From Pseudovirgaria hyperparasitica (lineage: Eukaryota), in assembly GCA_010093815.1 (NCBI GenBank), contig ML996585.1: 64,000 bases of DNA. One strand, written 5' to 3'. How positions within the stretch are numbered: the stretch's first letter is position 1; each line of letters opens with the position of its first letter. This document shows positions 38,991 through 64,000 of this stretch, piece by piece. The notes beneath the pieces are model-generated. The model ran no database searches, had not been told where the DNA came from, and was given only the letters and a program-made list of their open reading frames with translations. The position numbers were made by a program, and so were the translations under genes.

Positions 38991-39447
38991 CGTTATAGGC
39001 ACGCGACACGACACATTATAATAGAATAACATAGAGAAGTCTAGAATGGACTAACATGGACCATTGTACACGAGAAGAATATAGGACTAAGAAACCAAAA
39101 AGGTACCCTACTACGGAATTGAACTCGTGATATATAATATAAAAGGTTAGAGTACCCGAACTAATAACTACTAGGCCACTAGTTCGGGTGCTCTAATATA
39201 ATTTAGAGAGATAAACTAATTTATATACGATGCCTATACTTAAGTAACTTAAAGGAAATTAGAACCTAAAATTTAATAGTTATAGAATAAATAAGAACGC
39301 ACATAATATTATTAAGTTAAGAATTAAATTACTAGAAAACTAGTAGATAGGTATCTAAACGGTCCAAAAAGGACCAAAACGGATAGAAACTAGGTAGATA
39401 GAGCCAACACACACCATATAAAAACCCTAGCAAATAGAGCCATAGAG

Positions 39448-40752
39448 CTACTCCTCCATCTTATTATTACTCTTAGAGCGTAGCGAATAAACTAACTAAG
39501 TAATAGAGTAACGGAGGTTAGAGACCTTATCCTCTAGAGTAACCACGCGCTTAGTTAGAGCCTAGTAAGACGACGACTAAGCGCTAGAGCGGAGCGACTA
39601 GACCTAAAGTTAGCTAACGCGGTCTAGAATAATCTAGAATAGAATATATACCCTCTTACGAGGCGACTTAGAGGGAGAAATAGTAGACCTCTTATAAGAT
39701 CTATTAGTAGCGCGAGATAGACGGGGGGGGGATAGAGCGAATCCTCTCTACGGCCTCTATAGCTAGGATAGACTCCCTAGAATAGGTAGCCTAGGCGCTA
39801 GGGATCTCGCGGCGGCTAGAAAAATCAATAGGTATTAAAAACAATTAACGTGCTCGTAACTTATACTTTAATAACCTCTAGAAAGAGCTTATAGCGCTCC
39901 CTAAACTCCCTCTATATAGTAGATAGATAGCTATAAGGACCCCCGAGGGTCTTACGGACGCGAAGGTCGTTATATATATCTTATATACGCATAGGAATCT
40001 AAGAATGTATTAGCATAGACTACTTTAGATTATACTAGATTAAGATAGCCTATTATACTTACCTATAGATAAGTCTTACTAGTTACGGTATAGCGGCGGT
40101 AGTAGGTAGGGAGCTTAAAGATTATGCGTATAGGCCTATCGCGGTTAGTAGAGTAGTAGCTAATACTAGAGTTAGAGCGGAAGAGATATTTAGAGCCGGT
40201 AGCGTAAGCCTTAATATACTTAAAGTATATTAAACCGTAGTTCGCTGTTTTCCTATGGCGTAAACCGTAACTACGTTTAGTATCTTCGGCGACCTAGACC
40301 TTATTATTACTAGGGCTAGGTTTAGAGCGAATATTAAGGTCCTAAAAGGACCTAGAGCGACTAAGTTAGTCTATATTAGATCGAAAAGAGAAATAGCGTT
40401 TAGAGCGAGGCGGCAAAGGCATGAACTCTCGATTATTATCTATAACGAGATCTTCTTCATCCTCTAAAGGAGGTAGAGTAGATAGGCGGCGCGAGTAGGT
40501 GTAGGTAGACTTTATAGCTACCTCTTCCGCAACACCAGTACTAGAATTACCTAGATTAGAGCGACTAGTGGCCACGTTAGTGATAATAGTAGTAGTAGCC
40601 TTAGCTACCTTCTTCTCTAACTTAGAGCGTGTCTTTATACTACTACGATAAGTGGATTTTTTAGCTAGTATAGCTAGGGTAGAGATAATCCCTTTAGAGT
40701 AAGTCTTGCGAGAGAAGGAGATAGGCTTAGGAATAGGACTAGTATTAGATAT
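39448..40752 (-). pseudogene. Antisense spliced accessory gene of A3
   Basis: Contains the supplied ORF 40366..40575. Exon 1 is 690 nt and exon 4 is 150 nt (net -6 and -3 nt versus A1, frame preserved). Intron 40062-39999 has GTAAGT. Confidence 0.8.
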
Positions 40753-41484
40753 CTATATATATACGTTAGCTAGAGATCTAAGAGTGGAATACTCGTTCAG
40801 CCTTAAAGGCGATTAAAAAAGCTAAATTAGTAACCATAATAACGCGAATAGATTATATAGGACCAGCTCTAACGAAAATAGACTACTCTAGACCCGAACG
40901 GATCTAAACTAAAGGAGATAGTATACGAATTAACGACTTACCTTAAGAGTAAGGTAGATATACTAGAGAAGAAAATTCAGAATAAGAGAACTAAATATAA
41001 GCTTAGTTAATATAGCGGTCACATAACCCGCGGAGCTACCTCTAAGGTAGTAGCCATGAAGTAAGGGATGAGCGCGTGTATAAATAAAAGTGAACTAGAG
41101 CTTAAGTTTACTAATATAAAGACTATCGATAACGTTATATGGATTTAATTAGATACGCGTATAAACATAACGCTTATAGAATTACGGATTTATATATAGC
41201 TAAGTACTTCGGGGCGAAGCATAAAAAGAAGAAGGATATTATTAGGGCTAATACTAGGATGGACTTAACTAGAATACTATAGTCTAGTACGGTCCGTGAT
41301 AGGTGGACCTAGGGTAAGTCAGCTAGAATAAGCGAGACTACTATATAAGTAGGCCGTACACACTTAATTCCTACTCTTTAGGAATCAACCTCGTTAGAAG
41401 AGTAGACTACCCTTTTAAATATATTCCCGAATCCTCCTATGACCTGTTAGACTACTATCCTACGTCTACAATCCTTACAATCCC

Positions 41485-43095
41485 TTATAGTAGATATAGC
41501 TAAGTTATATATCTTAGTTCTATATTATTAAGTAGCTCTTACTACTAATAGAGTATTAAAACTAGAGATTATAGAAGTTATTACTATCTAGTATAATATT
41601 ATAGAGTAGTAATAACGCCTTACTATCTATATAGTATCTAGACTAGACTAGAATCTTATTCTTAGAAGTCTATAGCTCTACTAGGCTAGTACTATTATTA
41701 ATATATATATAAATAAAATTATACTTTACTATATCTATAGCCTTATAGTCTAGAATATAAATATCTATATATATCTAATAAGTATTTAGATTCTTATTAA
41801 GAAGGGCTATATTATTAGAGATCTAGAGACGGCTTAGTACTATAGATAAGTAGTTACTACTAGTATCTATAATATTATCTATCTTCTATAACTTATATTT
41901 CTCTAGTTATCTCTAGTATCTAACTAGAATATAACTAAGCTTATAGAGAATAGACGCCTATTTCTATTTAAGCTATATATCTACTATAATCTCTTTAATA
42001 AGATAAAGATATTAGTACTACTACTCTATAGAGAGAATACTAACTACTATATTTATATTAAGTCTATACTAGTAGAGATCTCTATAAACCTTCTCTAGAG
42101 ACCCCTCTATACTATATCTTAGAAATAACTTATAGAGCTCTACTACTAACTTATAGATCTTATAGATAAGGGATAGATATAGACTAGCTTCTTAGTAGCT
42201 AGAATACTAATATTTCTTATTTCTAAGCTAGAAGGGAAGTAGTAGCTATATATTAACTATAGAGCCCTTAATAGTATTATAGAGTAGAATTAATATCTAC
42301 TACTACTTATATATAAGACGCTATATACTATTAGTAATATATTATAGTTTAGTAAGGTAGATATCTAGGTAGTATTCTATAAACTATAGATTACTACTAG
42401 GGATAAATATAAGATAGCCTTTTATATCTAGTTTAGCCTCTTTAAATAGATAGTTCTCTCTTTTAGTCTCTCTAGTATTTCTATCTTCTTCTAGTACTAT
42501 ATTAATAGAGTACTAAGTAGGGTTCTAGGGGTTATCTATATAGTATATCTTAATAATATTCTTATCTATACCCTAGGTATATTAGAAGACTACTAGACTA
42601 CTATAAAGACTATTCTATCTCTTCTTATAAAGGCGGACCTTTACTATAACCTTACTAAATACTATTTTACTACTAAGAAGGTCTAGTACCTAGATTATAT
42701 TATTACTACTAGAGAGTTAATCTACTCTAATCTAAAGAAAATTATTATAATCTAGAACTAGAAGCCTCTAACTATAGTCTAGGGCGTCTAGTAGTTTATT
42801 AGATTTATAAACTTCTACTATAACTTTCTCTCTAACTTCTCTACTATAGTAGCTCTACTCTATACCCTTATTAAAGCTAGAATAGTCTTTTACTAGAGTC
42901 TAGCTAAGGACTATATATTTAATATACTAAAGAATACTTTTATTATAGGGCTAATTCTCTAGTTCTAGAATAAGATATATAATATAATAGTTAAGGTAGA
43001 TTACTCTAGATATATAATAGGTAGATATCTATTCTAAAAGGTTTAGAGTATTTAGTACCTGGTAGTCTACTATTCTATAGCCCTTACGGCCGCTT
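41485..43095 (+). pseudogene. pol: Family C protease/RT/start of RNase H relic
   Basis: De-RIP 'CIDYRALN', 'YPLPLI', 'VYLDDILIY' (~42542), 'VQQFIGFANFY'. Confidence 0.85.
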
Positions 43096-43808
43096 TATAA
43101 GAATAGAGTTATTAGATAGTAGTATAGTTAGATAGAATAATAGGGTATATTCTATTATAGAATAAATTACTACTAAACTCTTTTAGTAGGAATCTAAGAG
43201 TATATATATAAAGGGACGCTAATCTATCTAGTATATAATTATTTACCGCCCTTTATACTACCTTCTAACTATATTAGCTAAGATATATATAGATTAGGTT
43301 ATATCTAAGGCTAAGTTCTAATAATTATCCTCTTCCTTTAGGAAGCTACCCTTAGTAACCTAGATTATTATCTATCTCTATATTTCTATTCTAAGTCTTA
43401 TAAGACCTTAGTCGTTCTCTATACTTTATCTTAGATATTTACTAATATTTACTAATCTAAGATTTATATAAGTATTTTTCTAATAAACTAGATTTTATCT
43501 ATTCTAAATTCTTATATAGATAAGATTATCTAATTAGGCCTAGTATATCACGTAATATAATTAGGTAAGCCTAGGTACTATCTATATTAAAATCTTTTCT
43601 TAGAAATATTTCTTTCTTTAAAAAACTTCTTAACTCTTTATAGAGTTTTTTAGATTATTAGATATATTACCCGATCCTTATAGATATAGATTTATATAGA
43701 TTTACTATAATTTAGTATAATTTATATAATTTACTAATTTTTATACTATATTTAGCTAGTAATAATAATAATCTATAATAATCTATATAAATTAGTAATA
43801 ATTATAAT

Positions 43809-44790
43809 ATAGTTTTCTAAAATCTTAATACTCTAAAGTAATTAGTACAGAAATAGACACCTTTAAATAATCCCTATCTTATATATATTACTAATATATT
43901 AAAAGCTATTAATCTACTCTAACCTAGGCCAGACTCTAATAATCTAGCTATATATTATTATAGTTATTACTTTCTATTATATACTACTTACAGTAGTACT
44001 AAATCTATAATATATAGTACTTATATAACTAAGAAGCGTTATTACTTATAGGTATTTAAATAAGTTTAAAGAACTTTATATAGATTTACTTATATTAGTA
44101 TAGATTACTACTAGGCCTCTAGTAACCCCTACTAATAAGAAGCGTAGTACTACTAATTATAATACCTTAGAGAAGGCTTTCTATAAGCTATATATCTAAG
44201 GTAAGAGTTACGCCTAGAAGTACGATTCTAATATAATCTATAAGGATTTATTAGAATCTACTATAGCTATTATTACTATAATTACTAGGTAATATTCTTT
44301 TTCTTAAATCGTTATAGATTCTTACTAATATATATTAATCTCTATAATAGTACTAAAATCTCTACTACTTTAGACTTCTTTCTATATACTAGTAATATTA
44401 AAATTCCTAGAAAAGGTTCTAGTAAAAAGGCTAAGGTTCCTTTCTTATATATATCTAAGAGCTTTAAATTTAGAGAAGATAGCTCTAATCTAGAAATTTC
44501 TATACTAAAGGTATATAGTTCTATACTAATTATTAAATCTTTTTACTAATTTATATAATTCTTAGTATACTTATACTAGTCTATCTCTTTCTACTCTAGT
44601 TTCTACTACTCTATAGATTTCTATAGAGGAGTTTATAGCTACAAGACGCGCTATATAGAATTTATAGTATTAGAATAAAAGGCTAGAGACTTATATTATA
44701 AAGCTCTATACTATACTAAATAAGAACTAGTAGAAGGAATTAGATATAATTATCGCGGTAATTAGTACTTCTACTTCTACTCTAACTTAA
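43809..44790 (+). pseudogene. Antisense spliced accessory gene of D1
   Basis: Colinear with D3 57210-58191. Retains the GT donor directly after the CLQ codons (~44052). Confidence 0.72.
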
Positions 44791-45170
44791 TTAGTTTAGA
44801 TCTATACTAATTAATACTAATATATTTCTTTTATCTAGTATTTTTAGTTTTCGGTTTTAATTTTAAAGTAATCTTACTTCTTCTAGATAGATTAGTATAA
44901 GTTTATATAGATCTATATAGATATTTATATTTTCTTTTAGCTTTCTTAATTTTATCTTTCTTTAATAATAACTTCTTTAATCTCTTTAGTAATCTATACT
45001 AATCTATACTAATTAGTACCGATTTTTAATATCTATTTCTCTTAGTAAATTATTTTTCTAAGTCTCTTTTTTAGTTAAATTTTTTTTAAAGTTCTAAGTT
45101 TAAACTTTCTAAGGAAGTTCCTTAATTTCTTAGAATATTTTAAAGATCTATATCTCTTTTACCTTCTTCC

Positions 45171-45398
45171 TATTAGAACTTAGCCTTAGGTAGAACCCGA
45201 CCTGCACGTACCTTAGCTAACAGGGTTAGAAGGTGACGTGAAGGGCGGTAAATAGTCACGTACTAGATAGATCGGCGTCCCTTTATATATATACTCTCGG
45301 ATTCCTACCGAAAGGGTTTAGTAGTAATTCGTTCTATGATAGAATACACCCTATTATTCTATCTAACTATACTACTATCCAATAACCCTATTCTTACA
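45171..45398 (+). mobile_element. Solo LTR of family D, inserted in D1 in the opposite orientation
   Basis: Reverse complement of the D LTR. TSD CTTCC at 45166-45170 and 45399-45403. The empty site is visible in D3 at 58566-58575. Confidence 0.95.
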
Positions 45399-45574
45399 CT
45401 TCCTTTTAGGCGGCTATCCTTAGTACTAAACTATACTAAAAAATATTAGATTACTATACTTTAGTATAATTCTCTATAATTCTATAGCTTTCTTTACTAA
45501 TCGCTACTTATATACTAATATTACTACTTTACTAATATTTATTATAGATTTCTAAGTATCTTTATTAGAATTAT

Positions 45575-46176
45575 TGTAAGGAGGCGGGCTCTACGCACCA
45601 ACCAACTACACTAAAAGGACCGAATCTTAAAGCTACTGCTTCAAGGGTGGAGCACACTACTTATATACGACTACTACACATATGTATAATTAACTAGTAG
45701 GCACGTGCCTAATAATATCTCCCCTTTTTAAAGGCGCGTGCCCTTATACGTCGTGGGTATCTATCTTATAAAAGATAAACTAAACTAGCCATAATAGGCC
45801 TAGTATACGCGCTAGCCACACTAGGCCTAGCATAAACCATATATATATAATTGATATTTATAATGCCGCCTCTAGTACTAGACACGCTAACTTACTATAG
45901 TAACGTTACTACCATGTCATCCGTTACGTACATAAAGTACACGTGACGTGGTAAGCTAAACGGAATCATACGAAATTCAATAACGGTTGACTAGACCGAG
46001 AGTTAAACCCGTGACCCCGTAGTAGCTTTAAGATTATATAAGGAGGCGGGCTCTACGCACTAACTAACTATACTAAAAGGACCGAATCTTAAAGCTACTA
46101 CTTCAAGGGTGGAGCATACTACTTATATACGACTACTATATACATGTATAATTAACTAGTAGGCACGTGCCTAACA
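45575..46176 (-). mobile_element. TRIM-like non-autonomous LTR element E (602 bp)
   Basis: 140-bp LTRs at 45575-45714 and 46037-46176 with outer TG...CA. 322-bp interior without a supplied ORF. PPT complement TCTCCCCTTTTT at 45718-45729. Confidence 0.9.
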
Positions 46177-49100
46177 TCGCGCTTCTAGTATTAACTATAT
46201 CTTAACTAACTTAGCTTTATACTATACTCGCCTACCTATAGAGATTTTACTATTATTCTCTATAAGTTTATTAAGTAGTACTATAATTTAAAAGAAGTCT
46301 ATAGTAAAATTAAAATAATAGTTTATAAAATCTATAAACGGTCTAATTTAATATATAGTAGTAGGTTCTAGCTATTCTATAATAGTCTTTATATACTCTA
46401 GCTCTATTTTTAGGCCGCTATATATTATAATAAAGCTAAGAAACCTAACTTCTTATTAGTAAAACTTATATTTAGATAATTTTATATAGAGTTTATACTA
46501 CCTTAGACGATTTAGTACTAATTTTATATATTTCTTATAATTCTATATACTATTAGAGTAAATTAGTATATTATTAAGATAAACTATATAAATCACGTTA
46601 AGTAATTCTATAAGTATAGTATTAATATATTCTTAAAACGCTTCTAGTATATTTATAAGTCTAAATAGTATAATAGTATACTTAAAATAACTATATCTAG
46701 TCTAAAATATAGTTTTCTACTTATCTCCGTAACGAATTCAAAGCTAGTAATATATATCTTATAAATCTAGCTTTATAAAGTATTTTACCTTTATTAATTA
46801 GTCTAAAGATTTACTAACTAGTAGTAATAGATAATAATTCTTCTTAGTTACTATATTTAGTATCTAATAGTTAATATATAGATATAAACTTCTATCTTTC
46901 TTCTTTATAAAGAGAATAGATATACTAGCTAATAATATACTATAATATATCTAGTCTCTTCTAAGGTATTCTTTAATATATTTATAAAGAACTTTAAGTT
47001 CTAGTCTTAAAAGTAGATAAAGTAGACTATAAGGGACGTCTACTCTCTCTTTAAGCTTAATCTTTAGCTTATATAGTCCATAATTAGGGAGAAGTAACAC
47101 ATCTCCTACTAAAAATATATCTATATACTATAAATATATATTAGATAGCGTGTCTTTACCCTAATTATTACTATTATCCTTATCTTTATTAATGATTAAT
47201 AAGGACGTAAGATAGATTAGTAATAATTAGGTCTATATAGTAAGGTTCTATACCTCCTTACTAATAGTTACGACTTACTAGTATAGTTTACTATAGTATT
47301 ATTAGAATATTAATATCTTCTTCTAAAAATTAAGGATAGAGTTTAGATATCTAAGCTAAGGTATCCCTAGAATTATATTCTATTAGCTAATATTAGCTAC
47401 GATAAATTTATTAGATATCTACTATTTTATTATCTTTAAGTTATAAACTTTATAATTTATTATAGCTTTATCTAAAGTTCTAACTTTATATCTATTAACT
47501 ATAATAGTTTAGCTAACTTTACTAAAATTATATAATAATCTATACTCCTTTATAAGAATTAATAAAATATAGTTATCTTCTATACTAGTATCTATAAGGG
47601 TCTATATAGTTTTATTACTATTTACTATAGATAATAATACTTTTAGTAATATTAGGTCTTTACTTACCGGAAGGCGCTATAGCTCCTTCTAAGTATATAT
47701 AATTTAGCTAAGAACGCGGTTAGATCTTATATACTAGTCTATTCTTTTTTTAGATTCTTATAGTTAGATAAAATATATTCTATTTCTCTATACTTATAGT
47801 AATAAAGTATACTATAATTCTACTATTTTATAATAGATATTATATTTAAGTCTATATCTTATTCTTTTCTATATTAAGAAGTACTATCTTAATTATTTTA
47901 GTATCCTCTTAACGTATTTCTACCCCGATTTATACTCTTCTAGTACTAATTATAGTAAGGTTACTCTTAATTAAATATATTTAATTAATCTTATTTCTAA
48001 CCTATATAGGGTTTATTAGTTTTATCTAGAGAGTTATATTTATTAAGGATATAGTAGTATTTATTAGCTTTCTTCTCTAATTTATATAGATAGTTAAAAC
48101 TTAATAATACTATTTCTAGTCTTTTACGGATTAACGGAAGTAGTACTTTATAAAACTAGAATATATAAATATTTTTCTATAGCGTAGGGATATTATTCTA
48201 TAGGTTTTATAGGTATTATAGTAGTTAAGTAGATGTCTAGTTCGGTCGTTATACTACGCTTCTTAACTTAAATAGTATCTTTCTTTTATATTCTCCGTCC
48301 GTTCTAAGGGTATTTAGTATAAATATAGCTAAATATTCCTAGGTTATTATAGATAGTAGCTACGCTTCCTTCTATCTATTCTATTAATCGTGGGATTATA
48401 AGTCTAGGTATTATTCTCTAAATAAAATATATTATACTTTAGTAGAAAAGAGTAGAGAGTTATTAAGGAAGTACTTTTCGTAGTCTCTCTTCTAGTCTTT
48501 CTACTCCTTTTAGTTCTTCTCTATAAATATAGTTAGGTCTTTAGATTTTAGTATATCTAGAGAAGAAGTAGAGTAAATTAGTAACGAAGCGGCCGGGAGT
48601 ATAGTAGATTATTATAACTCTAATAGTAGGTAAATTAATTCCGTCTAAATTAGTATAGGAAGTCGTCTATCTACTATCGTTCTATATAGTTCTTTAAGAG
48701 ACTTCTTAAGTTCTTATCTCTTTATAAGAAGTTTCGTATATTCTATCTACTCTTTAAGAGTTTAAATCTCTTAAGTCTAATTCGCGATATATTTCTAAAG
48801 TTTAGTAATAGTTTATTATAATATCTCGTGTAGCTCTACTATAACTTATTATTTAGCTTTATATTATTAGAAGTTACTTAGTGTATCTACTATTTCTTTA
48901 TCTAAAAGCTCCGTAATTTAGTCTAATATCTCTACTTCTTAGTTAGAAACGGCTAGAATTAATACTAATTATAGAGGATCTCTATTATTTAATATAGTAT
49001 TACTTATCTCTATAGTAGATTATATTAACCTTCTTAGTTCTAGTTAGACTATCTTAACTATAGTACTATATAGAGAGTAATTTAAATATAAGAATAGGGT

Positions 49101-49319
49101 TATTAGATAGTAGTATAGTTAGATAGAATAATAGAGTATATTCTATTATAGAATAAATTACTACTAAACCCTTTTAGTAGAAATCTAAGAGTATATATAT
49201 AAAGGGACGCTAATCTATCTAGTACGTAATTATTTACCGCTCTTTATACTACCTTCTAACTATATTAGCTAAGGTATATATAGATTAGATTATATCTAAG
49301 GCTAAGTTCTAACACGCTT

Positions 49320-51290
49320 AGTAGAACTATATAATCTATAATAAGAAGCTTCTTATAGTAGTTTAGTATCTTTAAGTATAGAAATCTAAGCTCTAAAGTA
49401 TCTACCGCCCCTTTATAATCTATATAGACTATAAGAATCTTAAGTACTCTATTAAGTCTTATCTTCTTATTCTATAGTAGTAATAATAGTCTAACTAGCT
49501 TATACTATTTAACTATAATCTTATATACTAGCTAGAATTCTAGATAGTCTATCTAGATACTCTAAACTACTATAACTAGAACTTATCTAAGAAGTCTCTT
49601 CTAAGGGGATAGCTTATAACTCTATAGACTATTAGAATAGTACTAGTAAGTATCTACTCTAGAGAGTTCTACCTTCTCTAGAGATAAAATATCTTTACTA
49701 ATCTCTATCTCTAGAAGCTCTAGAACTAGACTATTTAGTTAGTCCTAGTATATTAGATCTACTATAGAGCTATAATAGATAGAGTATATCTCTTTCTACT
49801 AGAGGCGCTTACTACTAAATAGATTATAGACTATACTATATTAGTATATAGAATACTTATATAGTAGAGAGTTATTTAGATATCTAAGTAAAATCCCCTT
49901 ACTATAACTATTATCTAGAAGTTCTATACCTCCCCTCTTATAGACTACCCTAGTAAGAATAAGATATATATAGCTATTTAGTAGAAGTACTACTAGAAGT
50001 AGATATAGACTAATATCTAGTAGTTTATATAAAACTATAACTACTATAGAGTCTATATAAATTAATATAAGATCTCTAGCCTTCTCTAGTCTCTTCTAAT
50101 ACTAGACTAGTTCTAGTTCTAGATTTCTATAGACTTTCTAACTAATCTTCTCTAATTAAATATATTATAGCTCTACTATCTTTTTATTATTATAGACTAG
50201 CTCTTAAAGTTTATTTAGCTAGAGATAATAATCTTTATAGTAGCTAAGGACTATATTATATAGTTTTATAATATATAGTAGTATTTCTAGAGATTTCTTT
50301 AGTTAATAATTATAGACTAGGGCTTAGACTAGCTAGAGTAGTTCTAGATAATTCTATACTCTATAATAGATATATACTAGAATCTCTCTATAGTCTACTA
50401 TCTATGGATAGATAGTAGTACTAAGTATATAAACTAGAAGATATAGACTATACTATATATTATAGTAATCTTTAAGTAAACTAACTAGCCGGAATATCTT
50501 CTAGTATATTAGCTCGCCCTTAATAACTATATCTTATTAGTAACTAGTATAGTACTAAATTTACTCCTTAATAGATACTATATTAAACTATTACTATAAT
50601 AGCTACTCTCTAATATCTCTATAACCTTAGTAAAAGATTAGACTATAAATTTCCTTAAATACCTTTAGAATAGTACTACCTTAGCTTAAATAGCTATTAT
50701 CTAGACTAAGTAGCGCTTCTAAGACTTAGTAAACTAGTTATAATATCTAGCTAAGTATTTTAAGATTAGTAATATAGTATAGTTCTCTCTCTAGAATATA
50801 AAGACTAACTATCTAAGCTAGAAGCTTAACTAGCTATAGATAAAGTACTAGATTATAGTCTAATCTACCCCCTTAATAGTAACCCTTAACCTCCCTAGAG
50901 ACCTCTATAGAATAGTCTATATAAGTTTTATTAAGCGCGCTATAGAGAACTCTCTATCTAGCTAAGAGTAGCTTAATATCTATTTAGATCTAGCGCTTAA
51001 GCTTAACGAAGTAGATAAGAATATTATAGAGTATAAGATTAAGAATATTCTATATATAAAAAATATATAAGAGTAGAATAAGTAATAGATACTTATAAAG
51101 TAGAAAGATTAGTTATAACTAATATAGATTCTACTTAAGAACATAGAGAATACTAAGGTACTAGACTAGTTTAAGTCTAGATATAATAATACTTAATTAT
51201 ATAATAGTCTATAACTCTAATATATCTCTAAGTAGTAATATTACTCTACTATTATAGATCTATAATAGCTCTAATAACTAAATATAAGAG
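49320..51290 (+). pseudogene. pol: Family C RNase H/integrase/chromodomain relic
   Basis: 'NY.IYDKELL.VV', 'TDHKNL', 'ISMDF', 'GQ..YQVYKLE', 'YEVERLV' after de-RIP. End approximate. Confidence 0.75.
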
Positions 51291-51539
51291 TAGAGATTTA
51301 GAAAAAGAAAGAAATAAATACTAAATACTAGTATCTAGTATAATCTAATAATAAACTAATATCCGCCTTAAGATATAAAAAGGTTATTTATCTAGCTCTA
51401 CCCTAGGTTTATATAGTACTAGGGCTAGTACTATTCTTATCTATAAATTCTAATATAAGGTTAGTTATCTAGTTCTTCTCTAGACTATCTTCTAATAGTA
51501 GTAGTAGCTATTAATCTAGGCGGGTAGTAAGAATAAATT

Positions 51540-52960
51540 ATACTTATCTATAGAAAAATTATAGTAGAGATAGACTAATAACTAATAGTAGTATAATACT
51601 TAATAATTCTTATAGAAATAGTACTAATAGTTATATAAGTAATAATAATAGTTATATAAGTAATAATAATAGTTATATAACTAGTTATAATAGTTATATA
51701 ACTAATTATAATAGTAGAGAGACTAATTATAGTAGATAGGGGACTAGCTATAGTACTTATAGAACTAGAAGTAGTTATAGTAGTAAGGGAGGGTCTAGAG
51801 CTAATAGTAAGATAGTAAGAACTTATAAGAAGAGATAGTAATAGAGAGCTAGGGGGGCCTAGTAGCGTAATAGTAAGGGCTCTAAGTTAGTAACTTCTTA
51901 TAGTCTATAGACTAAGGTTAGCGTGAATAGCTACTATCTAATAAGGGCTTCTTATTCTCTATAACTATCTAAGTAATAAGATAGTAAGAGAGTAGCTCTA
52001 CTAGGCGGACTAATCTAGATATAACTTACTATATAGTACCCTATAATATATATTAGAATAGGTATTTAGACTTACTAAGCTTATATATCTATAGAGTACT
52101 AATACTAGTATATAGCTTATCTATCTAGGCCTTATTATAGAATATATACTAATTTATCTAGTAAATTATACTACTAATCTAGCTACGGTTACTACTACTA
52201 TAATATAGTAGCTTAAATAATATTATAGTACTATAATAAGGTATTATAGAAGTCTAACTAATAATACTAGTATTATAATATATAATATAGATAATCTCTA
52301 AGTTAGATTTATAGTCCTTATATAGATAGTAGAATTTAGAGTTTATATAAGGCTATTTACTAGATAAAGACTTAGTTAGATCTATACTATATATACTATA
52401 GTTAGTTATATAACTAAAGTTATTACTAACTAAATTATATATAAACTTCTCTAGGTAACTTTATATCTTATATAGAGCTAGATAAGTAGTAAGCTTCTTA
52501 GTATTCTATAAGTAGAACCCCTTTAACTTATAGTACTTTATATAGATAGTACTATAACTAGACTTATAGCTATACTTAAGAATTAGTAGATACTACTATA
52601 GTATAGAGATAGTATATACTTAAGAATACTAGTCTTTTCTAGTATCTTTATATATATATAATATATAAAATATATAGACTTAGTATACTTATTCTCTAAT
52701 AAGTCGCTCTCTACTATATATAGCTCTATATAGTATATAGACTTAGTCTATTAGAGAGTAATAGAAGGAATAATCTATTTAGTTAGTAATAGAGATAGTA
52801 TAGAGTTAAGATCTACTTATAGTATAGTTAGTATATTCCTAGCGTCTAGATATATAATTATTATTAGAGTCTTCGCCTCTAGTATCTATAGCTACTACTA
52901 TAATAGCGCTGGTTATAGATATAGATCTATTTAGACCTAGAGTACTTATAATAATATTTT
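51540..52960 (-). pseudogene. Probable antisense spliced accessory gene of family C (Cys6-like, low-complexity C-terminus)
   Basis: De-RIP 'MCCxCMK...|C...ICMKCHKLKGFCLQ' at ~52670-52505. Intron-like segments with GCTAAC...TAG at ~51955-51905. Very heavily mutated; ends approximate. Confidence 0.45.
51625..51712. repeat. 18-21-bp tandem repeat (TAATAGTTATATAAGTAATAA-like)
   Basis: About 4 units with lengths divisible by 3. Confidence 0.7.
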
Positions 52961-53281
52961 AGAAGCTATAAGTTATTATATAAGAAGGTTAAGAATATAA
53001 TAGCTACACTATAGTATTAAGATAATAGATATAGTAGTAGTTAATAATAAAGAAAGATTATTAGATAAGAGACCTCTAACTTATATTAGAGATAATTATA
53101 TAGACTAGGATAGAGCTAGTTCTAAAGCGGATAATAATAAATATATATAGACTCTAAGCTCTACTATATAACTCTACTAATACTAACTAGTAATTACCCC
53201 TTATAATAATATACTAGAACCCTAGTCTAGAGTTTATCTAATATAGATTATATATAAGCTACTCTACTATTATATAACCTC

Positions 53282-53605
53282 TATATTATAGTCTAGCTAC
53301 TAGATTATTATATAACTAAGTATACTATAGCGTAAGAAATCTACCCCCGCTATATAATTAGTATATTATAGCTATAAGATATAGCTACTAAGTAGCTATA
53401 TAACTAAGTATACCGTGGTATAAGGGATCTACCTCTACTATATAATTAGTATATTATAGCTATAAGATATAGCTACTAGATAGTTATATAACTAAGTATA
53501 CTATAGTAGAAGGGATCTATTCTACTATATAACTAGTATAATACTACTATAAGTACCGTATCTCTACTATATAACCGGTATATTATAGCTATAAGATATA
53601 GCTAT
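53282..53605. repeat. ~87-bp tandem repeat upstream of the C 3' LTR
   Basis: 'tatattatagctataagatatagcta' recurs at ~53362, 53449 and 53579, with a degenerate unit at ~53282. Confidence 0.75.
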
Positions 53606-54951
53606 TCTATATTTAAGTATCTAATAGATTTCTAATAAAACCTAGAAGGATAAGAGTATATTATAGACTTTAGATTTATCTTATCTCTAGTATTATATAA
53701 TAGAGCCGGAATAGATAAGACTAGTATAGGGGTATTACGTAATCTTACTTAATACTATACTTAAGCTATAATCTATATAGACTTATCTCTACTTCTTAAG
53801 TTAAATTATAATATATCTTAATTACTATTATAGTAATACCTTAGTTATATCTATTATACGTATAGTATATAAGTTGCTATCTAGAATAAGAAAGTACTTA
53901 TATAGGTCTAGTAAGCGTCTCTAAAGAATATTATTAATAAAATTAATAAATAGAAAGAAATATAGTTAAATATAGTTATAGCTAAACTTACTCTAGAAGG
54001 TATAGTACTAACTACTACTACTAATATAGTCTAGTAGACTATCTTCTATAACCTAAATATAATAAATAATATATTCTCTAGTACGTCTATCTATATAAAT
54101 ATATATCTAATCTAGATATATACTATCTCTATCTAGGGCTATATTATTAGAAATAATAATATTAAGTAAATAGAGTAATCTAATAACTAGAAGTACTCTA
54201 GAATTAAGATTATAAAGATATAGTAGAAAAATATATAGAGGATTAAGGTAAAATTAAAAAAAAAACTCTACTATAATAGTAGAGCTTAGAAACTCTATTC
54301 TTATCTATAGAATTATATAAGAAGACTTCTTAGCTAAAGAGAAACTACTTATAGTAGAACTATAGAATTAGATATAGATAATAATCTAATACTTTAACTA
54401 TTAAGAGTATAGATATACTAGATAGAGATACTCTTAAAAGACTATATATAGCTAGTATTATTAGAGCTATAGTATCTAGAAATACCTCTATAGAATCTAG
54501 GGTAATAGTATATATAATAGAGATACTACTAAGTACTCTAACTATAATAGAAGATATCTATTCTAGTTAGTAATATATATAAAATATAAGTAAGTTACTA
54601 AATATATTAATACTATAAAGATAAGAGGGGTAAGATAGATATAATAGACTATAAGGCCTCTACTAACTACTCTAACCTTACTATCTACTCTAACCTTATC
54701 TATAAATATATTAATCTATCTATAAGGGGGTAGTAATAATATATAATAGTATACTATATAGAGAAAGATAGGCTAACCTAGAGGTATACTTAAAGTAGCT
54801 ACTATATAAGGGTAATTATACCTTAATATAACTAGTATATAGGCTTAAGCTTTCTCTAACACCTAATAAGAAACTAGAATACTCTTATTATTATATAGGT
54901 AAATATATAATATAAATAAGAAAACTAGGTAGTACTTCTAGAGAAGATAGA

Positions 54952-56497
54952 TATTAGAACTTAGTCTTAGATATAACCCGATTTATATATACCTTAGCTA
55001 ATATAGTTAGAAGGTAGCGTGAAGGGTAGTAAACGGTTATATACTAGATAGATTAGCGTCTCTTTATATATATACTCTTAGATTTCTACTAAAAGAATTT
55101 AGTAGTAATTTATTCTATAATAGAATATACTCTATTATTCTATCTAACTATACTACTATCTAATAACCCTATTCTTATATTTAAATTACTCTCTATATAG
55201 TACTATAGTTAAGATAGTCTAACTAGAACTAAGAAGGTTAATATAATCTACTATAGAGATAAGTAATACTATATTAAATAATAGAGATCCTCTATAATTA
55301 GTATTAATTCTAGCCGTTTCTAACTAAGAAGTAGAGATATTAGACTAAATTACGGAGCTTTTAGATAAAGAAATAGTAGATACACTAAGTAACTTCTAAT
55401 AATATAAAGCTAAATAATAAGTTATAGTAGAGCTACACGAGATATTATAATAAACTATTACTAAACTTTAGAAATATATCGCGAATTAGACTTAAGAGAT
55501 TTAAACTCTTAAAGAGTAGATAGAATATACGAAACTTCTTATAAAGAGATAAGAACTTAAGAAGTCTCTTAAAGAACTATATAGAACGATAGTAGATAGA
55601 CGACTTCCTATACTAATTTAGACGGAATTAATTTACCTACTATTAGAGTTATAATAATCTACTATACTCCCGGCCGCTTCGTTACTAATTTACTCTACTT
55701 CTTCTCTAGATATACTAAAATCTAAAGACCTAACTATATTTATAGAGAAGAACTAAAAGGAGTAGAAAGACTAGAAGAGAGACTACGAAAAGTACTTCCT
55801 TAATAACTCTCTACTCTTTTCTACTAAAGTATAATATATTTTATTTAGAGAATAATACCTAGACTTATAATCCCACGATTAATAGAATAGATAGAAGGAA
55901 GCGTAGCTACTATCTATAATAACCTAGGAATATTTAGCTATATTTATACTAAATACCCTTAGAACGGACGGAGAATATAAAAGAAAGATACTATTTAAGT
56001 TAAGAAGCGTAGTATAACGACCGAACTAGACATCTACTTAACTACTATAATACCTATAAAACCTATAGAATAATATCCCTACGCTATAGAAAAATATTTA
56101 TATATTCTAGTTTTATAAAGTACTACTTCCGTTAATCCGTAAAAGACTAGAAATAGTATTATTAAGTTTTAACTATCTATATAAATTAGAGAAGAAAGCT
56201 AATAAATACTACTATATCCTTAATAAATATAACTCTCTAGATAAAACTAATAAACCCTATATAGGTTAGAAATAAGATTAATTAAATATATTTAATTAAG
56301 AGTAACCTTACTATAATTAGTACTAGAAGAGTATAAATCGGGGTAGAAATACGTTAAGAGGATACTAAAATAATTAAGATAGTACTTCTTAATATAGAAA
56401 AGAATAAGATATAGACTTAAATATAATATCTATTATAAAATAGTAGAATTATAGTATACTTTATTACTATAAGTATAGAGAAATAGAATATATTTTA
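54952..56497 (+). mobile_element. Family D copy D2: 5' LTR (54952-55179) and gag, interrupted by D3
   Basis: Reverse complement of D1 47767-49314. Inserted at the start of LINE copy 2 ORF2. Confidence 0.9.
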
Positions 56498-57209
56498 TAT
56501 AAGAATAGGGTTATTAGATAGTAGTATAGTTAGATAGAATAATGGGGTGTATTCTATTATAGAACGAATTACTACCGAACCCTTTCAGTAGGAATCCGAG
56601 AGTATATACATAAAGGGACGCCGATCTATCTAGCACGTGACTATTTACCGCCCTTTACGTCACCTCCTAACTCTATTAGCTAAGGTACGTGTAGGTCGGG
56701 TTCTACCTAAGACTAAGTTCTAATAATTATCCCTTCCCTCTAGGAAGCTACCCTTAGCGACCTAGATTATTACCTATCTCTATATCCCTATCCTAAGTCT
56801 CGTAAGACCTTAGTCGTTCTCTATACTTCGTCTTAGATACTTACTAATATTTACCGATCTAAGATTTATATAAGCGTTTTCCTAATAAACTAGATTTTAT
56901 CTATCTTAACTTCTTATATAGGTGAGATTACCTAATTAGGCCTAGCGTATCACGTAATATAATTAGGTAAGCCTAGATACTACCTATATCAAAATCTTTT
57001 CTTAGAAATATTCCTTTCTTTAAAAAACTTCTTAACTCTTTATAGAGTTTTTAAGATTATTAGGTATATTACCCGATCCTTATAGACATAGATTTATATA
57101 GATTTACTATAATTTAGTACGATTTACGCAATTTACTAATTTTTATACTATCCTTAGCTAGTAATAATATAATTCGTAATAATCCGTATAAATTAATAAT
57201 AATTATAAT

Positions 57210-58191: not shown

Positions 58192-60170
58192 TCGGTTTAG
58201 ATCTATACTAATTAGTACTAATATATCTCTTTTATCTAGTGTTTTTAATTTTTTAGTTTTAATTTTAAAGCGATCTTACTTCTTCTAGATAGATTAGTAC
58301 GAGTTTATATAGATCTATATAGATCTTTATATTTTCTTTTAGCTTTCTTAATTTCATCTTTCTTTAATAATAACTTCTTTAATCTCTTTAGTAATCTATA
58401 CCAATCTATACCAATCGGCACCGATTTTCAATATCCATTTCTCTTAGTAAATCATTTTTCTAAGTCTCTTTTTTAGTTAAATTTTTTAAAGTTCTAAGTT
58501 TAAACTTTCTAAGGAAGTTCCTTAATTCCTTAGAATATTTTAAAGATCTATATCTCTTTTACCTTCTTCCTTTTAGGCGGCCGTTCTTAGCGCTAAACTA
58601 TACTAAAAAACGTTGAATCGCCGTACTTTAGTATAATTCTCTACGATTCTACGGCTTCCTTTACTAATCGCTACTCATATACTAATATCGCTACTATGCT
58701 AATATTTATTATAGGTTCCCAAGTATCTTTATTAGGATTATATCCTTTTTAATGAATTTTATATAGCCACGTGCTATCTTCGGCGTGTTACTAGCTAAGT
58801 ATCTACTTAACTTTATAGATATCTATACCTTCTTACGTAACTACTTTATATAGTATCTATTTAGAATGATCCGGTAATAATAAGGCATGAAATGGCTCGA
58901 GAAGCGTAATATAGAATATATTATATATCTTTAACGTAGGAGGGAGTTATAACTCGTACGCCTAGTTATTAATTACACGAGTAATCTTATATAGATCTAT
59001 TATCGTATAGTTAAGCTTCTTCTTTGGCCTAATACTATAAATATTCTTACTATTTAGTAAAACTTTGTCCCTAATATTAAAGATTATAGGTTTTCTACTC
59101 TTGTTATAGTGCGATTTACTATAATTCGTAGTATCTTATAGTAACTTTATAACGCTTCTTTGCGTTTAGAATAGTTCTATAGTAATTTCCATTGCTTTAA
59201 CGTTAGGTCGTTCTACTTTAAACTAAGTCCCTAAGAACTATATATTATGGTTCCGACCGAAGTTTACTTCGAACGGACTTACGTAGGTTAATATATATCG
59301 GCTATTATTATACGCGAATTCCGCGACATAGACTAACCTTATCTAGTTATTCTACTTATAGTTATAATATACGCGTAAATACACCACGACTATCTAATTC
59401 TACTACTCTATCTATCTATCTATTTATAGATAGAACGTAGTACTAAGTTTCTACTTAATTCCTAGTATATAGTAGAAATCCTTCTAAAATTTAGATGTTA
59501 TCTACGGACCTCTATCTAAAACTATACTATTTAGTATACTATAGAGCCGAAGTACGTTACGGAGTAGTATATCTATAAGATCCGGTACTTAGATTATCTT
59601 TCTTATAGGGATATAGTATAATATCTTTATAAATCTATCTAGAACTATAAGTAAACTATTATAAATATACCTAGAATACTTACTTAGGGGTAGATCTATA
59701 ATGAAATCTATTAATAATTCCTTCTATGCCTCCTTTAGTATAGGTAATAGCCTTAATTTACTATATAGTAAGTATCTATATACTTTTATATACTAGTAAA
59801 TATTATACGTTTTTATATAGTCCTTTATATATTTCTAAAGACCCGGCTAGTCGTACGTCCTTCGGATTAAATCGACCGTCCTTATAACGCTAAAGTATTC
59901 TACTAACGTGTAATTATACTATTCCCTTAAAATATTAATTTATAAGCCGCCTTCCAGCACGTAGAGTCGGCCTTAGAAGTAGATCGCGTCCGATTATCGT
60001 TTCTATCTTAATAACCACGGCGGATCTATAGTACTTCCTTTTATACTTATAACTTTCTTTACTAATATATTAGAATTCTAGGTAGATTTAATTAAGTCTT
60101 TAAGGGTTTTCTTATTTCCTTAGATATTTATTTAGATTACTTAATACCCGCTCTAATTCCCGCGGAGAAT

Positions 60171-61095
60171 NNNNNNNNNNNNNNNNNNNNNNNNNNNNNN
60201 NNNNNNNNNNNNNNNNNNNNNNNNNNNNNNNNNNNNNNNNNNNNNNNNNNNNNNNNNNNNNNNNNNNNNNNNNNNNNNNNNNNNNNNNNNNNNNNNNNNN
60301 NNNNNNNNNNNNNNNNNNNNNNNNNNNNNNNNNNNNNNNNNNNNNNNNNNNNNNNNNNNNNNNNNNNNNNNNNNNNNNNNNNNNNNNNNNNNNNNNNNNN
60401 NNNNNNNNNNNNNNNNNNNNNNNNNNNNNNNNNNNNNNNNNNNNNNNNNNNNNNNNNNNNNNNNNNNNNNNNNNNNNNNNNNNNNNNNNNNNNNNNNNNN
60501 NNNNNNNNNNNNNNNNNNNNNNNNNNNNNNNNNNNNNNNNNNNNNNNNNNNNNNNNNNNNNNNNNNNNNNNNNNNNNNNNNNNNNNNNNNNNNNNNNNNN
60601 NNNNNNNNNNNNNNNNNNNNNNNNNNNNNNNNNNNNNNNNNNNNNNNNNNNNNNNNNNNNNNNNNNNNNNNNNNNNNNNNNNNNNNNNNNNNNNNNNNNN
60701 NNNNNNNNNNNNNNNNNNNNNNNNNNNNNNNNNNNNNNNNNNNNNNNNNNNNNNNNNNNNNNNNNNNNNNNNNNNNNNNNNNNNNNNNNNNNNNNNNNNN
60801 NNNNNNNNNNNNNNNNNNNNNNNNNNNNNNNNNNNNNNNNNNNNNNNNNNNNNNNNNNNNNNNNNNNNNNNNNNNNNNNNNNNNNNNNNNNNNNNNNNNN
60901 NNNNNNNNNNNNNNNNNNNNNNNNNNNNNNNNNNNNNNNNNNNNNNNNNNNNNNNNNNNNNNNNNNNNNNNNNNNNNNNNNNNNNNNNNNNNNNNNNNNN
61001 NNNNNNNNNNNNNNNNNNNNNNNNNNNNNNNNNNNNNNNNNNNNNNNNNNNNNNNNNNNNNNNNNNNNNNNNNNNNNNNNNNNNNNNNNNNNNNN
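60171..61095. other. Assembly gap
   Basis: Run of N. Confidence 1.
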
Positions 61096-64000
61096 GCGAT
61101 TAAGGACCTTAGTTAATATAAAGTAATATAGATTTATATAATCTAATAATAATTTAATCTAATATACGGAGCCTTCTAAATAATATTACTATTACTTAAA
61201 ACTCTCGATAATTATAAGTAGTTTCTAGTTATACGTATTATAACACGTCTCTATATCTACTATTTTATAGAAAAAGAAAGCGACCGGATGCTATTACACC
61301 TTATCTTTCGTATCTTTATATAGTTAACTAATAATTCTAGTAATTGCGAATCCTAACACGTTAGTTTCGACCCGAATATACTTCTTAGGATTAAAATACC
61401 TAAGAATCGGCGTAGTTATAAAGTAATTCTTTAACGATCGGAACGCATCTTGCGCTTCTAGCGTTAACTATATCTCGACCGACTTAGCTTTATACTATAC
61501 TCGTCTACCTATAGGGATTTTACTACTATTCTCTATAAGTTTATTAAGCGGCGCCGTAATTCATAAGAAGCCTATAATGAATTTACGATAATAGTTTATA
61601 AAACCTATAAATATTCTAATTTAACGTATAGTAGTAGGTTCTAGCCATTCTATGATAGTCTTTACACGCTCCAGCTCTATTTTTAGGCCGCTATGTATTA
61701 TAATAAAGCCGAGAAACCTAACTTCTTATTAGTGAAACTCGTATTTAGATAATTTTACGTAGAGTTTATACTACCTTAGGCGATTTAGTACCGATTTCAC
61801 GTGTTCTTTATAATTCTATATACTATCGGAGTAAATTAGTATATTATTAAGATAAACTATATAAATCACGTTAAGTAATTCTACGAGTATAGTATTAATA
61901 TATTCTTAAAACGCTCCTAGCGTATTTATTAGCCCGAATAGTATAATAGTATACTTAAAATAACTATATCTAGTCCGAAATACGGTTTTCTACTTATCTC
62001 CGCGACGAATTCGAAGCTAGTAATATATATCTTATAAATCTAGCTTTGTAAAGTACTTTACCTTCGTTAATTAGTCTAAAGATTTACTAACTAGCGGTAA
62101 TAGATAACGATTCTTCTTAGTTACCGTATTTAGTACCTAATAGTTAACGCATAGATATAAACTTCCGTCTTTCTTCTTTACGAAGAGAATAGATACGCTA
62201 GCCAATAATATACTACGACGTATTTAGCCTCTTCTAAGGTATTCTTTAATATATTTATAAAGAACTTCGAGTTCTAGTCTTAAAAGTAGGTAAAGTAGGC
62301 TATAAGGGACGTCTACTCCCTCTTCGAGCTCGATCTTTAGCTTATATAGCCCGTGATTAGGGAGAAGTGATATATCTCCTACTAAAAATATATCTATATA
62401 CTACGAATATACGTCGGGTAGCGTGTCTTCGCCCTAATTATTACTATCGTCCTTATCTTTATCGATAATTAATAAGGACGTAAGATAGATTAGCGATAAT
62501 CAGGTCCGCACGGCGAGGTTCCATGCCTCCTTACTAATAGTTACGATTTACTAGTATAATTTACTATAGTATTATCGGAACGTTAATATCTCCTTCTAAA
62601 AATTAAGAATAGAGTTTAGGCGTCTAAGCTAAGGTATCCCTAGAATTATATTCTATTAGCTAATATTAGCCACGATAAATTTATTAGACATCTACTATTT
62701 TATTATCTTCGAGTTATGAACTTCGTAATTTATTATAGCTTTACCTAAAGTTCTAACTTTATATCTATTAACTATGATAGTTCGGCTAACTTTACTAAGA
62801 TCGTATGATAATCTATACTCCTTTATAAGAATTAATAAAATATAGTTATCTTCTATACTAGTATCTATAAGGGCCTATATAGTTTTATTACTATTTACTA
62901 TAGGTAATAATACTTTTAGTAATATTAGGTCTTTACTCGCCGGAAGGCGCTACGGCTCCTTCTAAGTATATATAATTTAGCTAAGGACGCGGTTAGGTCT
63001 CGTGTACTAGTCTATTCTTTTTTCGGATTCTTATAGTTAGGCGAAATATATTCTATTTCTCTATACTTATAGTAACGAAGTGCGCTATAATCCTACTATT
63101 TTATAATAGGCGTTATATTTAAGCCTATGCCTTATCCTTTTCGGCGTTAAGAAGTACCGCCTTAATTATTTTAATATTCTCTTAACGCATTTCTACCCCG
63201 ATTTATACTCTTCTAGTACTAATTATAGTAAGGTTACTCTTAATCGAACGTATTCGATCGACCTCGTTTCTAACCCGTATAGAGTTCGTCGGTTTTACCT
63301 AGAGAGCCACGTTCCTTAAGGATGCGGTAGTATTTATTAGCTTTCTCCTCTAATTCGTGTAGATAGTTAAAACTTAATAATACTATTTCTAGTCTTTCGT
63401 GGATTAACGGAAGTAGTACTTCGCGAAACTAGAATATATAAATATTTTTCTATAGCGTAGGGATATTATTCTATAGGTTTTAGAGGTATTATAGTAGTTA
63501 AGTAGGTGTCTAGTTCGGTCGTTATACTACGCTTCTTAACTTAGATAGTACCTTTCTTTCACGTTCTCTATCTATTCCGAGGGTATTTAGTATAAATATA
63601 GCTAAATATTTCTAGGTTATCGTAGATAGTAGCTGCACTTCCTTCTATCTATTCTATTAATCGCGGGATTATAAGTCTAGGTATCATTCTCTAAACGAAA
63701 TGCGTTATACTTTAGTAGAAAAGAGTAGAGGGTTATCGAGGAAGTACTTTTCGTAGTCTCTCTTCTAGTCTTTCTACTCCTTTTAGTTCTTCTCTATAAA
63801 TATAGTCGGGTCTTTAGATTTCGGTATACCTAGGGAAGGAGTAGAGTAAATCGGTAACGAAGCGGCCGGGTATATAGTGGATTATTATAACTCTAATGGT
63901 AGGTGAACTAATTCCGCCTAAATTAGTATAGGAAGTCGTCCACCTACTATTATTCGGCGTAGTTCTTTAAGAGACTCCTTAAGTTCTTATCTCTTTATAA

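Follow-up and report, generated by a model that had tools for sequence, protein, structure and literature searches.

A 64,000-nucleotide stretch of Pseudovirgaria hyperparasitica DNA (the window) carries, on the minus strand in the interval that separates pol from the 3' LTR of a retrotransposon of family C, what is almost certainly a dead copy of a real accessory gene. Its exon-intron structure, the coding constraint evident among its genomic copies, the homologous gene at the same place in related elements, its six cysteines and its RS/RD tail all identify it as a gene. The window copy itself is dead and contributes just one example damaged by RIP; the evidence comes from the other genomic copies and from related elements.

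The Host Element

Family C is a RIP-damaged Ty3/Gypsy chromovirus. LTRs, a target duplication, the RT-RNase H-integrase order and a chromodomain are all present; the chromodomain of C was recognized by eye, and those of close relatives through PF00385. The surrounding block is AT-rich and fungal and bears the marks of RIP (TpA/ApT 1.5–1.9, with CpA and TpG almost absent). Within it, family C forms a single element that spans 31772–53858. Its LTRs are 200 bp long, its target duplication is CGTAT, and it is interrupted by a nested A copy (A3) and a nested D copy. Its parts are as follows.

31767–31771 and 31772–31971, plus strand: CGTAT target duplication, then the 5' LTR, 200 bp
31972–51250, plus strand: gag-pol, with the RT, RNase H, integrase order; right end approximate
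31972–33470, 41478–43095 and 49313–about 51250, plus strand: the three gag-pol pieces, separated by nested A3 and D
near 51094, plus strand: chromodomain-like end of pol
53659–53858 and 53859–53863, plus strand: 3' LTR, then the CGTAT target duplication

The gene was first noticed in a sequence-only reading, which had a single, very degraded copy in view and proposed collecting others. The genome in fact carries at least 25 copies of family C, two genome searches having returned the identical 25, and these support a gene of four exons. Full-length elements measure 7.7–7.9 kb (four measured among five longer stretches), and in the pol of one copy (L113, with X at stops) matches to RT, RNase H and the zinc domain of integrase follow one another as in Ty3/Gypsy. 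Decay is most advanced in the window copy. Besides CpA it has lost CpG, with 9 CG in the gene (51465–52979) versus 75–147 in the other 22 copies, which sets it apart from the nested A and D elements. Elsewhere in the window, family D forms a 1549-bp inverted duplication (47764–49312 and 54954–56502) of 98.7% identity, much closer than other copies in the RIP block and so either a recent event or an assembly artefact, and an assembly gap of about 1 kb (60100–61100) falls within a D-type copy.

Structure of the Antisense Gene

Alignment of the 25 copies places the gene on the minus strand from 52979 to 51465, in four exons that total 449–456 codons. With pol ending near 51250 on the plus strand and the 3' LTR at 53659–53858, the gene is antisense and lies between the two. 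The interval first proposed for it, 51540–52960, is slightly too short, since the gene extends a little beyond it on both sides. Two copies (L049 and L050) are incomplete and were excluded from every per-codon count, leaving 23 complete copies; one row, a self inverted match (L026), was removed. The features are listed in the direction of the gene.

53294–53553, no strand assigned: units of about 88 bp in tandem, lying between the 3' LTR and the start codon of the antisense gene
52821–52979, minus strand: exon 1, 159 nt; 4 of 23 copies keep an ATG start codon, and the window has ATA
52775–52820, minus strand: intron 1, 46 nt; begins with GTRAGT in 22 of 25 rows; branch site of RCTAAC type
52620–52774, minus strand: exon 2, 155 nt; acidic EG(D/N)S patch at 52711–52700; Cys1 at 52663, Cys2 at 52654
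52570–52619, minus strand: intron 2, 50 or 49 nt; phase 2, one base ahead of the Cys3 codon; same site in the relative L117
52089–52569, minus strand: exon 3, 481 nt; Cys3–Cys6 at 52568, 52544, 52535 and 52514
52041–52088, minus strand: intron 3, 48 nt; phase 0
51465–52040, minus strand: exon 4, 555, 567 or 576 nt; Arg/Ser/Pro-rich tail including the 21-bp repeat

Introns 1, 2 and 3 begin with GT in 22, 21 and 11 of the 25 rows, respectively, and end with TAG in 24 of 25. In the window copy a GT donor remains at intron 2 only. The minus-strand strings from which the gene was first read are present at about 52666–52646 and 52544–52506, and the 50-nt intron-like segment seen between them is borne out. 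Its donor is GTATAT, GTACGT or GTATGT in 21 of 25 rows, its acceptor TAG in 24 of 25, a CTAAT lies upstream, and it holds the sole frame-shifting indel of the 23 complete copies; judged by its sequence, 52619–52570 is an intron. Less mutated copies lacking GT-AG boundaries or Cys codons would have spoken against the original reading; GT-AG is kept in them and Cys appears at two sites. Exon 4 ends in TGA in 2 of 23 copies and in TAA in 21.

Evidence of Coding

The summed exon length is divisible by three in all 23 complete copies. Their exon indels are of 12 and 21 nt, and the only 1-nt indel sits in intron 2. In-frame stops comprise 480 TAG, 88 TAA and 4 TGA, compared with 23 and 35 TGA in the other two frames, and all four in-frame TGA occupy columns where other copies have CGA. 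Fourteen of the 40 stop columns are fixed across all 23 copies. Such fixation is expected because CAG has been nearly erased (48, versus 3587 TAG), although ancestral stops may lie behind the fixed columns when these are judged from the copies alone.

Selection was assessed from transversions fixed between the two subfamilies of C, of 17 and 6 copies. These fall 16/17/45 at codon positions 1/2/3, so that 45 of 78 are at third positions (P 9e-6). Exons 1–3 contribute 5/0/11 and exon 4 contributes 11/17/34; the tail is the fastest-changing part, with 62 transversions in 555 columns versus 16 in 795.

The Cysteine Cluster and the Arg/Ser Tail

The spacing originally read for the cluster, C-x2-C-x11-C-x7-C-x2-C-x6-C, was right. 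The six codons (91, 94, 106, 114, 117 and 124) are exclusively TAY or TGY in 23 of 23 copies, and the intact relative L117 has Cys opposite all six. Within family C, TGY is seen directly at two of them, as TGT at the first Cys in 1 of 23 copies and as TGC at the fifth in 5 of 23; at the other four it occurs in none of the 23, which at three of these is explained by the rare survival of G after C (48 CTG versus 3587 CTA). Eleven columns of the C core hold C or Y alone. Details of the first translation did not hold up. The second "Cys" of its MCC (52660, codon 92) is CGY, encoding Arg, in 12 of 23 copies, and its K-L-K-G-F is T-S-K-G-T/I in less mutated copies. The six-Cys spacing stands regardless, because codon 92 is no part of it.

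The suggestion that a tandem repeat downstream might represent an RS-like tail proved correct. In six less mutated copies the tail is 26–29% Arg, with 14–19 RS/SR in about 150 residues, compared with 3% Arg and 32% Tyr in the window copy. Of the 47 codon columns from 51790 to 51625, 17 carry CGN in no fewer than half of 16 copies of subfamily 1, and the window copy has TAN at every one of these 17.

The Same Gene in Related Elements

Relatives were reached through Pol. The integrase-chromodomain part of pol retrieved 101 proteins, about 25 of them at 42–51% identity, and an alignment of eight Pol proteins, run on metagenome contigs, gave at least 599 pattern matches, with five relatives among the matches listed (L117–L121). 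All five carry the antisense gene at the same place and in the same orientation, in elements whose Pol is about 45–50% identical to that of C. The public contigs of L117 and L119 have open reading frames and intact pol genes. As a side observation, the contig ends of L117, L118, L119 and L122 (an element discussed below) show identical terminal overlaps of 71–123 bases, as in permuted assemblies of repeated elements or circles.

The cluster recurs clearly in these genes. L117, L119 and L120 have C-x2-C-x11-C-x7-C-x2-C-x6-C, and L118 has a first loop of x12 and a seventh Cys. L121, from another organism, is itself RIP-damaged. At 2046–1840 (minus strand) it reads Tyr in place of every cluster Cys except Cys5, and this survival of Cys5 only matches the pattern of family C. 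In C and in the relatives the cluster follows an acidic patch of EGDS type, and the helical region of exon 3 beyond Cys6 has homology to L117 and L118. The phase-2 intron ahead of Cys3 is also found in L117, and in L117, L118 and L119 a phase-0 intron precedes the Arg-rich tail exon, as in C. The tails of these three are 27–37% Arg; L120 has a weak tail (1 RS/SR) and a stop two codons past Cys6.

Compared in a four-protein set, all 23 copies of C match the L117 protein (E 4e-15 to 2e-4), 23 match L118 (9e-12 to 0.3), 16 match L119 (best 1e-3) and hardly any match L120. The alignment of C with L117 is gapless over 103 residues, with an hhalign probability of 91%. A profile of the four relatives matches 17 of 25 C loci, missing the window copy, and none of 30 A or 30 D loci.

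Exon 3, taken from 12 of the 23 copies with X at stops, gave no match in a word-indexed search of longer proteins and no Pfam family. A 70-residue repeat protein, the sole match to exon 3 among representative proteins, was rejected as chance. Viral contigs gave no locus with the damaged integrase as query and none with P0099 or P0004; with the Pol alignment as query they yielded one distant locus. In atlas features, the neighbors of the L119 exon are unnamed ascomycete clusters at 0.87–0.90, one set with DUF8257 in 29% of members at 0.84 and another with DUF3716 in 28% at 0.81, all of which are leads only.

RNA contigs map to L117 as five short pieces with no splice joints, the strand being undistinguished, and three of these cross predicted introns unspliced. 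Such pieces would also fit sense genomic RNA, because that RNA would look alike. The RNA runs X1 and X2 cover small shares of L117, with no joints in the covered parts.

Relation to Families A and D

The C gene had been proposed as a third member of an antisense Cys6 family that includes genes in elements A and D. The antisense, spliced, six-Cys gene is real, but its inclusion in one family with A and D finds no support in profiles, RT clade, spacing or introns. Profiles of A and D scored on C no better than reversed controls (hhalign 0.2–0.4%), and a C profile scored A at 4.0 and D at 4.7 bits versus 0.9–2.1 for reversed controls. This cross-family test has little power, because A versus D fails as well. 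The A sample comprised 30 of 130 candidates and the D sample 30 of 152, the sampled D copies being the most decayed.

A FastTree phylogeny of RT, built from 96 sequences and rooted at the midpoint, places C, L117–L120 and a Pyricularia Pol in a clade of 30 with support of 1.0. The last is P0025 (Pyricularia oryzae MCOR07_011848), a named Pol within the family C clade. A and D are sisters with L122 and distant from C. The closeness of A and D could owe something to the RIP bias that they share, a bias that did not draw C to them.

All three families share Cx2Cx6C-L-Q in the antisense 3' region, a pattern chosen after seeing the sequences; written with TRY codons, it has a chance expectation of 2.6 occurrences in the window. 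The first halves differ, A being compatible with x9/x9/CC/x17 and D with x4/x10, tentatively, from Tyr/Cys columns. An intron lies two codons after the last Cys in A, D and L122, and none lies there in C. L122, an intact element on the A/D side, has at 439–188 (minus strand) and 7117–6300 an antisense exon with eight Cys, spaced x2, x8, x7, CC, x29, x2, x6, and later exons that look coiled-coil-like; profiles of the A and D copies miss it. The antisense genes of A, D and L122 nevertheless resemble that of C in place, orientation, short introns and a terminal Cx2Cx6C. The C gene is of the same kind as the A/D genes and probably of another type; common descent is plausible.

Fold and Possible Role

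The canonical Zn2Cys6 cluster is Cx2Cx6Cx5-16Cx2Cx6-8C, with a first loop of 6. To call the C cluster close to canonical, as had been done, is an overstatement, since the first loop is x11 in C, L117, L119 and L120 and x12 in L118, and PF00172 gave no row for the intact exons of the relatives at E up to 5 and 10. What the two share is the division into two CxxC-based halves, found in L117–L120 and compatible with the codons of 23 of 23 C copies. Regulators of the PF00172 type, such as Gal4, Leu3 and AlcR, likewise have two CxxC pairs, each with a later Cys, a second half of Cx2Cx6C and a helical region behind; the C gene differs in its longer first loop, RS/RD tail, retroelement origin and lack of a middle homology region.

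Two models of the L119 domain, both poor (pLDDT 50 and 55), place a helix after each CxxC pair, as occurs in Gal4. A search of solved structures by sequence gave no matches, and Foldseek with the L119 model found nothing. In a wide structure search, the top scores (Z 2.8 and 3.4 for models 1 and 2) went to unrelated chains. Among the 13 weak matches of the first model, five are Gal4, Leu3, Pho7, AlcR and 1cld (Z 2.0–2.5); zinc clusters make up two of 28 among the matches listed for the second, a scarcity that is not read as exclusion. Gal4 (1aw6) aligned at Z 2.5 and rmsd 3.7 over 41 residues with model 1 and at Z 2.1 and rmsd 2.5 over 37 with model 2, tied with unrelated chains. These models offer a lead to a long-loop, Gal4-like cluster and stop short of membership.

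Whether the protein is a Gal4-like DNA-binding regulator of its element is, in our judgment, evenly balanced, which still places this reading ahead of the others; these chromovirus elements probably supply their own nuclear, zinc-binding regulator. A clade of fungal chromoviruses carries the accessory gene backwards between pol and the 3' LTR, and in the mechanism envisaged transcription would start from the gene's own promoter near that LTR. Because the gene is antisense, its introns would stay in the genomic RNA, survive reverse transcription and travel with the element. The protein would bind two zinc ions in a long-loop, Gal4-like cluster, enter the nucleus and regulate expression of the element in trans; the likeliest means would be its binding to DNA of the LTR or of the 3' array. 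The 88-bp array is a candidate promoter. In less mutated copies its units contain CGG-N8-CGG around a CACGTG palindrome, with one to four units per copy carrying it (L113:1297–1650). Neither CGG-N8-CGG nor CGGAGC was retained as a site shared with the relatives, both being too common in these GC-rich sequences.

A wider proposal, which we advance tentatively and hold to be rather doubtful, is that the spliced antisense genes of fungal chromoviruses, in at least two clade-specific types, code for Gal4-like regulators of the elements themselves, which bind CGG arrays in the elements' own 3' regions. One type would be the six-Cys x11/x7 protein with RS tail in C and its relatives, and the other the longer eight-Cys protein on the A side, as in L122. 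If true, retroelements would have their own equivalent of the antisense or Tat/Rev-like regulators of retroviruses, made from a fold of the fungal host.

Another means by which the protein could act is on RNA, in a Rev-like manner, with the RS/RD tail recruiting splicing or export factors and the Cys cluster being structural or RNA-binding. The Arg and RS/SR content of the tails in C and L117–L119 fits this reading, and Tat/Rev-like functions have been raised for such genes in a review (PMC7264820). SR splicing proteins also share an RS dipeptide-rich tail, yet neither their N-terminal RRM nor any other RNA-binding family was found in the exons scanned, the relatives' short Gly/Pro first exons being partly scanned. 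Moreover, the tail evolves fastest and is poorly developed in L120, in contrast to the constant Cys cluster, all of which makes an RNA role unlikely.

A third possibility is that the protein counters host silencing, whether by methylation, RNAi or heterochromatin, its Cys cluster targeting element DNA or a host protein. Element-encoded anti-silencing proteins exist in plants, purifying selection has acted on the gene in an element of a heavy-RIP host, and pol carries a chromodomain. On the other hand, no enzyme or chromatin domain was found in the exons scanned, and all 25 copies here are mutated regardless; the chances of such a role appear rather slim.

There is little likelihood that the element captured a host gene and takes it along as a passenger, or that the coding capacity is incidental to an antisense RNA. 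Its spliceosomal introns would imply a host-gene origin, and the L117 RNA contigs show no splice joints. Against this stand the excess of third-position changes, the Cys kept across elements with such divergent Pol and the same place and orientation in all five related loci; in addition, the four proteins of the profile search, the query's own among them, are unnamed. Finally, the idea that the Cys motif is an illusion of RIP, TAY codons being common enough to yield any pattern, draws on the chance expectation for Cx2Cx6C-LQ and on the eleven C/Y-only columns, and it is refuted by unmutated relatives with Cys at exactly the six codons and by the same Cys-to-Tyr shift, sparing Cys5 alone, in L121.

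Known Antisense Genes at This Place

Elements with an antisense gene between pol and the 3' LTR have been described before. The brtn gene of Botrytis Boty occupies that position in a fungal Gypsy element, as cited in PMC7264820, PMC4227169 and 10.1101/2021.04.13.439636 (journal version PMC8365987). The C gene shares this antisense place; the consulted parts of the citing literature name no Cys6 motif or RS tail for it, the portion seen of 10.1101/2022.03.07.483234 makes no mention of brtn, and no named BRTN was among the proteins found by our searches. In plants, the aORF-3R genes include gene23 of maize Grande and those of rice RIRE2, Silene Retand and PvRetro13, and they resemble the C gene in position, orientation, presence in most copies and conservation; some of their products are nuclear, and some of the genes have their own promoter (PMC7264820, in the portions consulted). 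These belong to plant elements, and the same portions of the review name SMC and transposase-28 domains, with no Cys cluster and neither "intron" nor "zinc". By the marks of an antisense accessory gene, the C gene is complete in 23 of 25 copies, has 45 of 78 fixed transversions at third positions and occurs in five of five related loci.

In the literature searched, a Cys6, RS-tailed antisense product of fungal Gypsy elements was not found named or described, although the original brtn report, supplements or figures could contain one. The role of antisense genes at this place is described as an open question in the parts seen of PMC7264820. The gene reported here has a recognizable anatomy of acidic patch, Cys6 cluster, helices and RS tail, and because L117 and L119 have open frames beside intact pol, zinc binding, DNA binding and the effect on the element are directly testable.
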